Source: a virus. Taken from it: DNA of 64,000 nt. The DNA lies in the IMG/VR virus record IMGVR_UViG_3300045125_000071, positions 171,582-235,581 of that record; one strand, given 5' to 3'. Positions 27,375 to 34,024 of the stretch are shown here, one piece after another (the first letter of the stretch is position 1; each line of letters begins with the position of its first letter). The notes beneath the pieces were generated by a model that searched no databases, was not told the origin of the DNA, and saw nothing but the letters and a program-made list of their open reading frames with translations. Position numbers and translations under genes: made by a program.

Positions 27375-27643
27375 TAGGTTTTGCTTAACTTCTCAATGTG
27401 TTTCTTAATCCACTTGATTCTTGGTTTGATTTTATCTACTTTCCACCAATATCCTAAGAAAAAACACGAGCCCACCAAGGTTTGTTTCCATTTATGTACA
27501 TTCTCAAATCACGTAATTCAGAATGTGTTATAATATTACTATAACATAAATTTAGAGACCATAAACACAAACCAAGTTCAAAATGTTTCTCGTTATCAAG
27601 CATAATCTGAAGCAACTCCTTGATGGGTCTATTCTGTTCCATG

Positions 27644-28168
27644 TTATTTGTTGTTTACGTAATCAACCAAATACTTCAAGTCATTGTAGACCTGGATGAG
27701 TCCAGCCCTATCATCCAACAGAGCCGAAAAGAATGGTTTTGCTGATTCCCAACCCAAATTAATTCCCTTGGTATTAATACCATCGAATGGGATATTGTGT
27801 TCCTTTAAGAAGGCATCAACATAATCCAATTCTTTATATGCTGTCCAACAAATCAACTTGCAACCGATTGCCTTCAAGTCACGGAGCAACTGACGAACTT
27901 GCTCGTAGGTTGCACCCGTCTTATGGTAGTCATGGACGGTTCCGTCAAAATCGAATCCAATTGTTAATGAACCATACTTTTTGTACTCAGCAACAAGTCT
28001 TTCGCAAGACTTGTTGTGTATCAAAAACTCATCGGTATTGAGTGAATTGCTAACCAATTTTTCATACAACCATTTGAATGAAACATATTGGTCTTTGAAG
28101 CAACCAACCGAATTTGGATTCTCAATTCTGAAATCCTCCCACAAATTCTCAAAATTTTTATTTAACAT
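27644..28168 (-). CDS. HAD-superfamily hydrolase
   Basis: FDFDGTV, LICWTA, LLDDRAG motifs. Confidence 0.7.
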   Translation of the reverse strand: MLNKNFENLWEDFRIENPNSVGCFKDQYVSFKWLYEKLVSNSLNTDEFLIHNKSCERLVAEYKKYGSLTIGFDFDGTVHDYHKTGATYEQVRQLLRDLKAIGCKLICWTAYKELDYVDAFLKEHNIPFDGINTKGINLGWESAKPFFSALLDDRAGLIQVYNDLKYLVDYVNNK

Positions 28169-28949
28169 TTTCTTTCATTTTTGTTTTGATTTCTTCCAAC
28201 GTTGCAAGGTAAGTAAATTGACCGTCCTTGTAGAGTGTTTTCAATTCGCTATTAACTTCATAACCCCATGAAACTCTGTCAACTAAAGGTAATCACCGTC
28301 ATAGTTTTTGGTAACTTGTAACAAACCAGTCGCAGATTTCTTTGTTCCATCATCGGTAACAGGATTCTTGAAAATCTCACGACTTTCACCATTCACCTCG
28401 ACATAGGTTGCTTTCATTGCAAAACCAAAAGTGTCGCGGGTATTGTACTGATATGTGAATGAACCAACACCAAATACAATGTTCGTGGATGCGAACCCTT
28501 TGGATGCAAAGTCGTTTGCAGATTTCCTCTGCCCTCTCAAGCGTAATAGAATCCCCATAAATGACTCCAATGTGCGGGTCCAATACTTTGTATCCTTGGT
28601 CATTTACGGTGCCACCAAAGACATCCCAAAGCAGTTCTACAACACCTTTGAAAGATGGGTGATTGGCATCGTAATCGTGGTACTCAAGAATCTCTGCGGT
28701 GTTGTATCCACAAACGATGTCAGCTGGGTTTCCGCTATCAGGACGAATAACCAATTTACCATCACGGGCGACAATTTTGTCTTTCAGAATCGGAAGATAT
28801 TCAGTACACATCCTCCAAATATCAAAAGTGTCGCTAACCATTGAGAAAATACCTGTTGGGAATTTGTCCAATAGTTCATTAATCCCATTCAATTCGTTGG
28901 TGACTTTCTTTTTGACGACTCTCTTTCTTGTTTCGATAACGGTTTTCAT
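28158..28949 (-). CDS. Nampt/Namat-like enzyme, C-terminal half (frameshifted)
   Basis: Own ATG 28949 with A-rich leader; SMVSDTFD, LVIRPDSG, IYGDSI, FGVGSFTYQYNTRDTFGFAMKAT, KKSATG. Confidence 0.85.
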
Positions 28950-29000
28950 GATTTTTTTGTTTTTAATGTCATTTGTGTAGGTAACAATATATTTATTGTT

Positions 29001-29738
29001 ATGAATCACAAACAAATATACCAAAATATTATTGACAAAGCAAAATCCCAAAACAGAAATAAAAAAGAATCATATTTTGAGAAACATCACATTATACCAA
29101 AAAGTGTTGGTGGTAACAACTCAAAAGATAATTTAGTATTATTGACTGCTAAAGAACATTTTGTTTGTCATCGTCTATTATGTTTTATATATCCCGAATC
29201 CAAATCTCTTTATTTCGCATTTTGGGCAATGTGTAATCAAGTAAAAGGTGATGTTAAACGTGATTACAGAATTAGTTCCAGGATTTATGAAAACGCAAAA
29301 TTAAAATTTAAAGAAGTTAATTCTTTGTTACATAAGGGTAAAAAACTTTCCGATGAACATATATCTAAAATCAGAGAAAGAATGTTATCTGACAAGAATC
29401 CAATGAAAAATCGGAAAGGTGAAAATAATCCTCTATATAAAAAAGAACGTAACTCAAACATTAAATCTAAAATTTCAAAAACCAAACTCTTAAACCCCAC
29501 AAAAAATTGTAATTTCAAGGGGATTTACATTACTCCTTTAGGTGAATTTTTCACATCTACCCAAGCATCCGAAAAACATAATTTAGATAGGTCGGTAATA
29601 ATTGAAAGATGTAAAGAAAAATCTAATAAAGTCATAACTAAAAAAAGTGTTTGTTTTTCAAAAGATTTAACATCTAACGACATTGGAAAAACATATAAAG
29701 AAATTGGTTGGTATTTTATACCTCAGTTTCCGAAATGA
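29001..29738 (+). mobile_element. free-standing HNH homing endonuclease (MobE-like), antisense within the Nampt-like gene
   Basis: EKHHIIPKSVGG..NLVLLTAKEHFVCHRLL; NUMOD3-like HKGKKLSDEH repeats. Confidence 0.85.
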
Positions 29739-30540
29739 TATTTCCATTATCATCATAAACTACTTGAACTTTATACTCCTCTTCGATTTCAATTTCACTA
29801 AATTCAGTTATAGAGCACATCACCGAATGTTCGGTTGCATTTACACTACCAACAATCGTCCCTTGTGCCCCATAGAATTTCCTTGCACCATGAATGACTG
29901 GGAGACTATCGGAGCCTGAGAATGAGATTGCGTGTCCAAGACCCGAACTAACACAAGCTTCGACAGAATCAAGTCCCCGCATGGAGAAGTCATGTGCTTG
30001 CCAATCGACAAACCATGATTTTTCCTTGTCGGTTTTTTCTTGCCAACTTGTCAAAACCTTGCGATATTGGGCTGCGATGGTTGCGGAAGTCATTGGTTTC
30101 CAAAGCAGATTGGAAATGATTGTTTCCAAGTAGTTGGTAATCCAATAAAAGTCTGGGTGCGTGTTGTAAATTGTCAACACAGGAACCTTGATGCCAACAA
30201 TTTCACCTTCGGGAATGATTTTGACATGAATGGGTAAATAACCCAAATCATGGAGTTTCTCGAAGTGTGAAACATCGTAATCTGTATTTAAGTACAAACT
30301 CAATTCTCTTTTCATTTCACCACAAACCTCTTCCTTAGGTCTTGAGAAAAACTCTTTTTGGAATGCCTCATGAATTTGCATCATGACCATTTGTTGCCCG
30401 AATGAAACGACTTTATCGCAACCTTTCGGGGCGTGTTTATTGCTTCGGGGTGTGAAATTGGAGTACACCAGGGTTGTTCCTTGAGGGTACATCAAGTGGT
30501 GGCCTGTCTTATAGCCATCAGTTAAAAGCAACGGATTCAT
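29716..30540 (-). CDS. Nampt/Namat-like enzyme, N-terminal half
   Basis: LLTDGYKTGHHLMYP, YSNFTPR, HDFSMRG, ATEHSVMC, then an acidic tail and stop. Confidence 0.9.
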   Translation of the reverse strand: MNPLLLTDGYKTGHHLMYPQGTTLVYSNFTPRSNKHAPKGCDKVVSFGQQMVMMQIHEAFQKEFFSRPKEEVCGEMKRELSLYLNTDYDVSHFEKLHDLGYLPIHVKIIPEGEIVGIKVPVLTIYNTHPDFYWITNYLETIISNLLWKPMTSATIAAQYRKVLTSWQEKTDKEKSWFVDWQAHDFSMRGLDSVEACVSSGLGHAISFSGSDSLPVIHGARKFYGAQGTIVGSVNATEHSVMCSITEFSEIEIEEEYKVQVVYDDNGNIISETEV

Positions 30541-30577
30541 AATTCTTATTTTAATTGTGAGGTAAAGTTAATACATT

Positions 30578-31036
30578 TTATTGTTTGATACCCATATCAA
30601 CAAATAAAACTTCAAAAGTTTCATAAACGGGTATGTTATAATACTGACAAACTATGTCAACATTCCCCTTTCTCCAAAATCCTTGTGGACAAACGACCCG
30701 AATCTTGCCAGAATGGGCGAATAATCCAAGTTCCAACAAGGATATTGGGGATTTGGTGTCAGGGGCGAAGTACATTATAATCAAGTCAGCGTTCTCCAAG
30801 GCATTTAATTCCCAGGTGACTTGTTGAAAGAATTGCGGGTTCTCAAACTCTTGTGTCCAAGAGGAATCCCAATCGTCCCTTCTTGGGTTCAGAATGTCAT
30901 ATCCGCAATCACCCAAAATGGTTTCAAGTTTTTTCTGCCAATCTTCGGCTTTACCCATTTCGATTGAGCCAGCAAGAAAGACTGACTTTCTGTCTCTGTC
31001 CCTCTTTGCAATATTCATTGGTGGTTTGTAAATCAT
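30578..31036 (-). CDS. nucleoside 2-deoxyribosyltransferase-like protein
   Basis: VFLAGSI..DWQ, NPRRDDWD, QVTWEL, SPISLLELG motifs. Confidence 0.8.
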   Translation of the reverse strand: MIYKPPMNIAKRDRDRKSVFLAGSIEMGKAEDWQKKLETILGDCGYDILNPRRDDWDSSWTQEFENPQFFQQVTWELNALENADLIIMYFAPDTKSPISLLELGLFAHSGKIRVVCPQGFWRKGNVDIVCQYYNIPVYETFEVLFVDMGIKQ

Positions 31037-31203
31037 AGTTATTTAATTTGTTGTATAATTGTTCTATCGATTGGAAAAAGTTTTGCAATCCATCTTCGGT
31101 TTCAAAATAATAATACCCGCTTATTGTATGAAACTTTTTAACATTTATAAGATGAATGACATCGTAATATGCTGAAGTACCACTACTTAAAATGACCGAA
31201 ACT

Positions 31204-32296: not shown

Positions 32297-32732
32297 TTAA
32301 AACACATTTAATTGTTTAACAAAACTGTGAATTGTTTTATGTTTTGAAAATGTGTCAACGATTGTACCATCCTGAATATCTTTGACACTATTTGTACAAA
32401 AGATACCATCGAGGTGTTGAACCAAGAAATCAAATCCGCACTGAATATTCCATGGGTTACAACCAAATAGACCTTACCACAATTTTTTGTTTTAATATTT
32501 TTGATAACTCAATAAACGTCCGACCCCCATCAATTACGTCATCGACTATTAAACAATCCATACCATTTAAATCATCTTTATATACTATCGTTTCAATGAT
32601 GTTTCCAGTAGAGATATCCCTAAGTTTATCGCACCGTATTATTTCCCCATCATATCCGATAGATTTTGCCAAATCAAAAATTTTCTTATTTGACCCCGCG
32701 TCTGGACTGATTAAATAAAACTTGTTATTCAT
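32297..32732 (-). CDS. Prs/Adps-like enzyme, C-terminal domain (frameshifted)
   Basis: Own ATG; LISPDAG, KLRDISTGNI, PRT motif LIVDDVIDGGRTF, VTHGIFS. Confidence 0.85.
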
Positions 32733-32742
32733 TTTTAGAGTT

Positions 32743-33528
32743 TTATATTTGTTTTTTACGTTCTAAAAATATTGTTGATTCATCATAAAGATAATCTAAT
32801 ATTTTGATTACTTCTCGTTTTCCACTATATTCTAAACAAAATATTTTATCTTCACTTATGTAACCGCCAACATTTAATCGATTATTTAAATGTTTTTTTA
32901 ATTCAGCGCAAAATTGTTCAGTACCTCTAAATGTTAATTTTTGTTTGTGTGTTTGTGTATTATCATTTTTATTGGTGTTAAGATACAAAGATAATCCCCC
33001 ATCACCATCAAAATAACCTCTAATAAAATGTTTTATCATATTATTGGGTATAAAATTAGGAATGTAATTTTAAATGTTTTGTTTTGAACACACCTAAAAT
33101 TTTTAATCTTTTGGATATCTGTTACATTGTTAATGTCCAAATATTTTTGTTTATAATTTTCACCTCTTGACGTATCAACACCTAAAGGTCTATTAGATTC
33201 CAAAACATTTTTTATTTTAATCAATATTTCTTCATCACTTTCTTTTAGTGATAAACGAATTGATTTTCTTTTTCATTATGATATCCATCAGCATATAAAA
33301 ACCCCAAAACGTATGAACTATTCTCATTTAATTCATCAAAAAAATTCTCATTGATTGTATAAATTCTCCTACTTTCAGAAAAGTTTTTTAATTTTCTCCT
33401 CTTCTTTTCAATAAATTTCTCACCGAAGTTCTATGTATCTTATATTTCAATGAAAGTTCATTTAAACCAATACCATTTCGATAGTCATCAATTAATGTTA
33501 TTTTTTCTGTATCTGTTAATTTTCCCAT
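32743..33528 (-). mobile_element. free-standing LAGLIDADG homing endonuclease (frameshifted) between the Prs-like halves
   Basis: YVLGFLYADG and HFIRGYFDGDG motifs; FLERK C-terminus. Confidence 0.8.
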
Positions 33529-33556
33529 ATTATTTAATTGTGATGTCTTTGTGGTA

Positions 33557-34024
33557 TTATTCTTTTACCACATCACTATTATAAATACTATCAATTGCAA
33601 ATAAAACCAATTCATTGTTTTTAATTTCAACAAAATTATTTAAACAACACTCTAAACTAGATGAATGCGGGTCAAGTGTAATAACCTTAGAATAGTTTTG
33701 ACTATTGATGATAGGACAAATTACTTGTTTGAGATAATTCACACCGCCCTCAACAAACTTCCTATCACTTCGTGACCCCAAGAAATATGGAACATATAGT
33801 TCAATCTTTCTACTTGGTTGAATATTGCGAATCGCCTGGGTTGCACAAATGATAAGTTCAGGGTCACGGAAGGAATTGAGTCGGGATTCAATCCTTACAG
33901 GGTCGGTATATCTTTCAATACATGACCAATCCGTAAGGTCGATTGTTTGTTGACCATCAGGGAAGTTAGATATTTTAAATTCTACTTGAGAATTTTCAGG
34001 ATATGCTAAAGAAAGGCTACACAT
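33557..34024 (-). CDS. Prs/Adps-like enzyme, N-terminal domain
   Basis: FPDGQ, YVPYFLGSRSDR, LDPHS. Confidence 0.85.
   Translation of the reverse strand: MCSLSLAYPENSQVEFKISNFPDGQQTIDLTDWSCIERYTDPVRIESRLNSFRDPELIICATQAIRNIQPSRKIELYVPYFLGSRSDRKFVEGGVNYLKQVICPIINSQNYSKVITLDPHSSSLECCLNNFVEIKNNELVLFAIDSIYNSDVVKE

Follow-up and report, generated by a model that had tools for sequence, protein, structure and literature searches.

The stretch of viral DNA considered here, a window of 64 kilobases (kb) corresponding to positions 171582-235581 of the 251-kb contig G000 (IMG/VR record IMGVR_UViG_3300045125_000071), contains a gene for a Namat-like enzyme that is divided in two by a free-standing gene for a MobE-family HNH endonuclease, located on the opposite strand. 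The genes and features of this split Namat locus are listed in Table 1; all coordinates are those of the window unless another locus is named.

A Namat gene in two pieces

The N-terminal piece (N-half) comprises the Nampt N-terminal domain and the beginning of the phosphoribosyltransferase barrel (Pfam NAMPT_N, expect value (E) 3.7e-7; NAPRTase, E 1.1e-4) and aligns with residues 1-242 of intact relatives, and matches to the two families are found across all Namat pieces. The codon of the catalytic His238 (29827-29829) lies on the N-half, and the gene is split four residues past it, the insert standing where intact proteins have a six-residue surface linker. An original prediction, made from the letters of the window, had described the ends of both pieces, and the open reading frames (ORFs) agree with it: the N-half (30540..29716) ends exactly with ATEHSVMC followed by a tail with ten acidic residues (D/E) and one lysine, and the terminal piece on the other side of the insert (C-half) has its own ATG at 28949 and a head with seven basic residues (K/R; MKTVIETRKRVVKKKVT). 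The overlap between the HNH gene and the N-half stop, and the gap of about 50 base pairs before the C-half start, had likewise been read correctly. The overlap measures 23 nucleotides (nt), with the final seven tail codons inside the HNH reading frame, and the gap 51 nt.

The HNH gene can be assigned to the MobE-type homing endonucleases by motif and similarity, as had been proposed, and its cleavage activity is predicted. It matches Pfam HNH above the cut-off (E 1.9e-6), NUMOD3 just below the cut-off and PHROG 655 at E 7e-43, and its product shares 47% identity with T4 MobE over the first 119 residues (E 7e-33). The accompanying claim that no group I intron is present also held: the antisense ORF is flanked by 51 nt and 73 nt only, both coding or spacer, without a group I intron core, and a search of Rfam over 27500..31200 yielded no group I intron, none at E <= 1. 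A match to U1A_PIE at 28442-28519 (-) in the same database lies inside coding sequence and scores 30 bits against a gathering score of 50 (E 0.0013), and was taken as chance.

Table 1. Features of the split Namat locus and its Prs-like neighbour (window coordinates; aa, amino acids; CDS, coding sequence)
Feature	Position	Strand	Description
Namat N-half CDS	30540..29716	-	274 aa plus stop; ORF
N-half C-terminal tail	29719..29814	-	32 aa, net charge -9; intact homologues without tail
MobE-family HNH gene, free-standing, antisense to Namat	29001..29738	+	245 aa
Divergent spacer, HNH ATG to C-half ATG	28950..29000	.	51 nt; A-rich leader; partly conserved in locus L358
Namat C-half CDS	28158..28949	-	263 codons after allowing two presumed 1-nt assembly indels (28508; 28284/28285)
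C-half N-terminal head	28899..28949	-	17 aa, net charge +6; intact homologues without head
C-half residues 18-81	28707..28898	-	cassette-linked haplotype; signature SDTF..WRMCTEYLP at 28791-28835
GSFTYQY	28445..28465	-	matches aromatics of the Namat selectivity-clamp helix; alignment to PDB 9w5x
Prs-like (likely Adps) gene, also in pieces	32300..34024	-	PHROG 619 ribose-phosphate pyrophosphokinase, E 2.8e-19

The C-half is the point at which the original prediction went wrong. It had been presented as one ORF, and two frame breaks were missed: between 28949 and 28158 the frame shifts at the T-run 28508-28510 and again at 28284-28289, so that the window's C-half is read in three frames. An independent Illumina contig of 305 nt from an RNA library matches the window base for base over 28225-28529 except at these two sites, with one base fewer at 28508 and one extra A behind 28284, which gives a single frame of 263 codons. 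The contig G000 carries such indels throughout: for 17 of 54 proteins from a relative the match is spread over two or more frames, ORFs of at least 300 aa number 8.0 per 100 kb in the contig vs 28.5 in the relative, and only one ORF of at least 330 aa is found in the whole window. Since the independent contig removes both breaks and the window's own contig is indel-ridden, the breaks in the C-half can be regarded as 1-nt assembly errors and not as decay, and the pervasive indels mean that ORF calls in the window need caution. In relatives, the homologous C-halves are single ORFs of 258-302 aa. As the 305-nt contig comes from an RNA library and covers part of the C-half, it also gives a weak hint of expression. 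Small shares of the sequence occur in two sequencing runs, one of which (X2) covers 29526-29686 only, within the HNH gene.

The gene can be filed as Namat-like, a member of the NARP1 counter-defence system, and not as a plain Nampt, and its product is predicted to form nicotinamide adenine dinucleotide (NAD+). This assignment is based on its best structural match, on the clamp aromatics and on an upstream Prs-like gene in the NARP1 layout. In a search of solved structures, the intact relative L005 matched PDB 9w5x at E 7e-153 vs 5e-66 for human NAMPT. His238 of the ATEHS motif aligns with the histidine of 9w5x and with that of human NAMPT, as expected for a Nampt-like core, and the window's GSFTYQY aligns to G390-Y396 of 9w5x, including Phe392 and Tyr396. 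A Prs-like gene immediately precedes Namat in loci L002 and L358; in the window it lies upstream at a distance of about 1.8 kb. Compared with solved structures, its protein matches ordinary Prs only (best E 5e-13), a result that does not separate Adps from Prs. The second gene of the NARP1 operon of Osterman et al. is reportedly annotated as Nampt. A Prs-family gene comes first in that operon, according to the accessible text of the preprint (10.1101/2024.02.11.579819).

The identifier 9W5X appears once in the accessible text of Lan et al. (2026; PMC12774641), who report the structure of the SpbetaL1 Namat, and 9w5x is presumably the entry of that paper. The same text describes Phe392 and Tyr396 of SpbetaL1 Namat as touching NAD+, and F392G/Y396K as mutated in tests of the selectivity clamp; in our own reading, they are the two extra aromatic residues of the clamp helix. 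The NAD+-contacting residues named in that text are distributed over both halves of the split gene.

Distribution of the split and spread of the cassette

Among 80 related loci in IMG/VR, 76 are uninterrupted and read ...EHSVMC-AG(S/G)K(D/E)D-E..., with the six-residue linker; in their alignment none carries tail- or head-like residues as a contiguous insert, which agrees with the short linker that had been assumed for intact homologues. The remaining four loci consist of one with the same split as the window (L002), two with another endonuclease (L067 and L070) and one that is uninformative. A larger sample was drawn from a protein collection as the best 120 clusters resembling the N-half (151-483 aa). 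In this sample 67 clusters show the intact linker, 23 an acidic hairpin tail as in the window (type A), 16 a helical-looking tail (type B) and three a third tail type (type C), while five are cut before the split site. The other six comprise P0055, with a fourth kind of tail, P0084 and P0115, which are intact with variant linkers, and three that look truncated or frameshifted. C-halves with a basic head form ten clusters, again of single ORFs with the lengths given above.

For type A, DNA is at hand for five loci, namely the window, L002, L358, L376 and L360. In all five the gene order is N-half, antisense HNH and basic-head C-half, with the stop and start codons conserved, and the recurrence of this architecture in four other loci places the feature far beyond chance. 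In L358 (reverse strand) the window's 51-nt spacer can still be made out; some 300 additional bases, with a 63-codon ORF, then intervene before the C-half. A scan of IMG/VR with a degenerate tail motif retrieved the L002 contig only; the same scan over 28 of 64 parts of the metagenome contigs gave 123 loci, three of them true type A and 120 matches to unrelated YD-like hairpins.

In L067 (2661-5083) and L070, Namat is split at the same loop by an antisense endonuclease of 264 aa (PHROG 314; NUMOD3 just below the cut-off), which shows no similarity to the HNH protein of the window. The N-half tail of this type B is helical-looking, being AGTGDMEARLKNGEYTELIKEYYSF in L067 and GIGDIVSKLENGEMKELVEEYYS in most type-B clusters, and its head is near-neutral. 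At least three other cassettes, each with its own tails, appear to have settled independently in this active-site loop. P0021, whose tail end is similar, was considered as a candidate for another split site and rejected, its relative L255 being one read-through ORF of 568 aa with a loop insertion.

The intact locus L097 (945-3226) provides a view of the endonuclease outside the enzyme gene. There an HNH gene whose product is 53% identical to that of the window is intergenic and divergent from an intact Namat of 499 aa, resembling T4 mobE beside nrdA, and this position is likely the ancestral "home" of the endonuclease. A derivation of the N-half tail from the C-terminus of the gene adjoining the intergenic HNH was discarded, as BLASTP gave no alignment at E <= 100. 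A scan with the HNH protein as single query gave one weak match. The contig carries another, incomplete HNH copy outside the window (G000:C1:144063-144383), which is 44% identical over residues 10-114 and is interrupted by a TAG.

Comparison of type-A and intact genes revealed that more than the endonuclease gene has been moving. The N-core of L002 is 97% identical to that of the intact P0002 (mean 80% to other type-A proteins) and residues 144-302 of its C-half are 95% identical (mean 78%), whereas residues 17-80 are only 73% identical to P0002 vs a mean of 85% to other type-A proteins. L002 is therefore a mosaic allele, 95-97% identical to intact genes outside the cassette block. A signature in this block, SDTF..WRM..(E/D)YLP, is present in 10/10 type-A C-halves and in 0/58 intact proteins. 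On a quick FastTree phylogeny of 105 N-cores, chosen by likeness to L002 and not longer than 483 aa, type A requires 18 state changes vs a shuffled mean of 21.9, at least eight of them forced by well-supported branches; near-identical pairs of split and intact members (P0010/P0089, P0061/P0066) occur on this tree, and clusters at 90% identity contain split and intact members together. The tail, the HNH gene, the head and about 60 downstream codons thus form one horizontally moving block, scattered over the N-core tree.

Extensions at the break and proposed reassembly of the halves

The opposite charges of the two extensions, which had been noticed in the window, proved to be a conserved polarity: net charge ranges from -6 to -13 in 24/24 tails and from +5 to +7 in 11/11 heads. 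Tail length and stop are kept across 24 clusters with N-cores sharing only 64-88% identity with the window's. Mean pairwise identity is 0.62 for the tails vs 0.77 for the N-core, and 0.69 for the heads vs 0.70 for the C-core. Between the window and L002, nine synonymous and 12 non-synonymous changes are found in the 25 tail codons that do not overlap the HNH gene (synonymous excess, P 0.009), and the proportions of non-synonymous (pN) and synonymous (pS) differences in the tail are 0.17 and 0.64; the heads differ by ten synonymous and nine non-synonymous changes (P 0.003). Over the five loci, pN/pS was 0.05-0.45 for the tail in 10/10 locus pairs and 0.15-0.87 for the head in the six comparable pairs. 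In the same 25 non-overlapping tail codons pS is 0.5-0.85, near saturation, and pN 0.03-0.30; for the Namat core the values are 0.7-0.8 and 0.14-0.17, respectively. Both halves and both extensions are under purifying selection.

We lean, if not strongly, towards the explanation that the separately translated halves of the MobE-type-split Namat reassemble non-covalently into an active enzyme, with the extensions as predicted assembly tags. The antisense MobE-family HNH insert takes the place of the six-residue surface linker and supplies the acidic tail of 32 aa to the N-half and the basic head of 17 aa to the C-half. The two halves would be translated separately and would fold together into the barrel without splicing, and the extensions would help the halves assemble, whether through mutual binding or by making the dimer and the composite active site more stable. 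Mutual binding of tail and head may be envisaged because the two exit the fold at positions separated by six residues. From the conservation of both we infer that the pieces are active and are assembled through the extensions. A bolder and more tentative proposal, which we consider possible without expecting it to hold, is that the endonuclease carries its own antidote, consisting of the acidic beta-hairpin and basic strand tags together with a resistant downstream haplotype, and thereby homes into the catalytic centre of a phage anti-defence enzyme that goes on working in two pieces. If so, phage Namat would offer a natural setting in which to study gene repair without splicing, and a source of natural split-protein tags.

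Structure prediction agrees with these proposals in part. The original prediction had called both extensions beta-strand-like, and this is sustained for the tail: in an AlphaFold2 (AF2) model of the N-half alone (mean predicted local distance difference test score (pLDDT) 61), strands 258-262 and 268-273 pair as a hairpin, residues 261-270 have a pLDDT of about 77, and the final 17 tail residues are thus a predicted beta-hairpin of moderate confidence. For the head, which is drawn as a low-confidence helix, the prediction is uninformative. Several further observations weigh against assembly by way of the extensions. Tail residues 243-255 fall below a pLDDT of 50, and the C-half modelled alone reaches a mean of 48, with the head below 50 and no strand. 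Constraint on the head is weaker than on the tail, its pN/pS rising to the upper value given above. A search with type-B heads returned 22 proteins, of which 21 are near-neutral (about -3 to +3), one of these being intact and without head, and a single exception, P0173 (+5), resembles type A. Since heads in other split classes are near-neutral, the halves apparently cope without charge pairing, and charge zippering does not appear to be a general requirement at this split site. The five tail-head pairs, each from one contig, are too few for covariation. Transcription of the C-half behind an antisense gene would need explaining, and a promoter and terminator scan was at chance level, with 11 found vs 10.2 expected from shuffles. 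Finally, in phage Aeh1, whose ribonucleotide reductase NrdA is split by MobE, the tails are dispensable for the a/b heterodimer and are required for the dimerisation of heterodimers; they do not join the halves (accessible text of PMC3045599).

The Aeh1 result favours an account, rather unlikely in our view, in which the halves join via the native barrel interface and the extensions have been selected for a dimer of heterodimers or a composite active site, or for the solubility of half-barrels. Type B and the other split classes without charged heads point the same way. The conservation of opposite charge in every tail and head argues against it, as do the exit points of the extensions: they are bridged by six residues in intact proteins, so that tail and head must lie side by side. 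It is improbable that the extensions are by-products of insertion, arising by read-through and from a start codon inside the cassette, with little role in the enzyme, and kept by a young or DNA-constrained cassette. Such an origin would fit the overlap of the last seven tail codons with the HNH frame, the partly conserved spacer by the head, which may be regulatory, and the horizontal spread of the cassette. Against it stand the near-saturated synonymous and low non-synonymous change in the tail codons outside the overlap, and the constancy of tail length and stop in clusters as diverged as those described.

That the insertion killed the gene, leaving the pieces and the C-half frameshifts as a decaying pseudogene, is very improbable. 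The two frame breaks in the window and the broken state of the neighbouring Prs-like gene would suit decay, but both C-half breaks vanish in the independent contig, the whole window contig is frameshifted, the C-halves of relatives are intact, and the core retains a low pN relative to pS. We give least credence of all to a ligated product, with tail and head as the stumps of a split intein or as intron flanks. Tail and head may loosely resemble the terminal strands of the cyanobacterial DnaE split inteins. The acidic N part, the basic C part and the beta-strands also recall the genes of Dassa et al. (2009; accessible text of PMC2677866), and a split-intein origin was raised for Aeh1 by Crona et al. 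(PMC3045599). However, 32 and 17 residues are too few for a Hint fold; none of the 24 N-halves has a Pfam Hint or intein match with the threshold relaxed to E 10; neither the tail, the head nor the tail profile retrieved an intein from the PDB, the tail profile finding YD/Rhs-type hairpins only, at E 2-3; the cysteine preceding the tail is absent in 3/24; and the residue after the head is glutamate in 11/11, not cysteine, serine or threonine. The intron version is countered by the empty Rfam result reported above. By these in silico criteria, neither RNA splicing nor protein splicing is predicted.

Neighbouring genes and comparison with known systems

The Prs-like gene upstream of Namat is itself broken into a N part (33557-34024), endonuclease-like ORFs on the same strand (32743-33224) and a C part (32300-32732), all on the minus strand. 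Additional frame breaks occur within the C part, whose start is at 32732. The endonuclease-like ORFs match PHROG 4645 endonuclease (E 2.8e-17) and contain an FDGDGG motif which we take to be LAGLIDADG-like; Pfam gave no match for it. No Rfam intron was found there. Directly upstream of Namat, at 30578-31036 (-), lies a gene resembling nucleoside 2-deoxyribosyltransferases (Pfam PF15891, E 8e-37), and a similar gene is located upstream of Namat in L376. Against cultured phages, a megablast search with the region gave no match and tblastn with the N-half matched 2007 records, all below 60% identity; no close cultured relative is thus known. The largest ORF of the window had no phage match.

The principle of charged tails reassembling a MobE-split enzyme is already known. 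The arrangement nrdA-a/mobE/nrdA-b in Aeh1 was reportedly first described by Friedrich et al. in 2007. The original prediction had named it as a precedent that works in pieces, and the accessible text of Crona et al. (2011; PMC3045599) shows by experiment that the oppositely charged tails of the split NrdA are essential for activity; the concept is not new. The authors proposed that the tails arrived with the endonuclease, and predicted that further such cases exist and are hard to find. The Aeh1 ribonucleotide reductase has remained, for fifteen years, the sole worked-out case of homing-endonuclease tails rescuing a broken gene. A related arrangement is the T4 topoisomerase gp39/mobA/gp60, where a Mob-type insertion divides a gene and the gene products have tail-like charged extensions (accessible text of PMC3045599); T4 gene 60 also involves translational bypassing (bioRxiv 10.1101/2022.08.31.505936, accessible text).

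The fractured split-intein genes of Dassa et al. (2009; PMC2677866, accessible text) share the order half, endonuclease gene, half, as well as the acidic N part, the basic C part and the beta-strands. They differ in that the split Namat lacks both a Hint domain and splicing residues, its additional residues numbering only 49; ligation is therefore not expected. The NARP1 Namat proteins of SpbetaL1 and Bas63 (10.1101/2024.02.11.579819; PMC12774641, accessible texts) belong to the same family and have the clamp aromatics and the upstream Prs-like partner, but they are single polypeptides. The words "split" and "homing" do not occur in the main text of the Osterman preprint, nor does "split" in that of PMC12774641, where "homing" was not searched. 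A split nadV, Nampt or Namat gene with a homing endonuclease was not found in full-text searches of the literature, including passages of PMC5107563 and PMC6715854, with supplements and subscription journals outside the scope of this search.

NARP1 is a phage counter to NAD+-depleting immunity, and the locus illustrates that selfish elements colonise anti-defence genes, presumably without disabling them. Annotation pipelines will label the halves as truncated genes or pseudogenes, and NARP1 will be undercounted as a consequence.

The closest likeness is to Aeh1 nrdA. In both systems a MobE-family HNH gene is inserted at an essential site in the gene of an alpha/beta-barrel enzyme, and the active-site residues are shared by two polypeptides; there is no splicing (predicted in silico for Namat), the C- and N-terminal tails are oppositely charged and unique to the split form, and relatives of the endonuclease are intergenic beside an intact gene (here in L097). 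As far as we can tell, what is new is the kind of enzyme affected, its antisense endonuclease gene, the inversion of the charge polarity, the evidence at population level and the fact that splits recur in one loop of the active site. The enzyme here is Namat, an anti-defence NAD+ ligase known in this case from sequences. Its endonuclease gene is antisense, whereas that of Aeh1 is co-directional, and the polarity is reversed, with an acidic N piece and a basic C piece in Namat. In addition, Namat is split in dozens of metagenomic lineages, with the tails moving together with the endonuclease. These many diverged variants yield sequence statistics that the single Aeh1 case could not give, namely on selection, on the invariant polarity and on the co-movement of the tails with endonuclease and haplotype. 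If the halves do reassemble as proposed, the split Namat would add a second, widespread example of a mechanism demonstrated until now in only one phage, for its ribonucleotide reductase.

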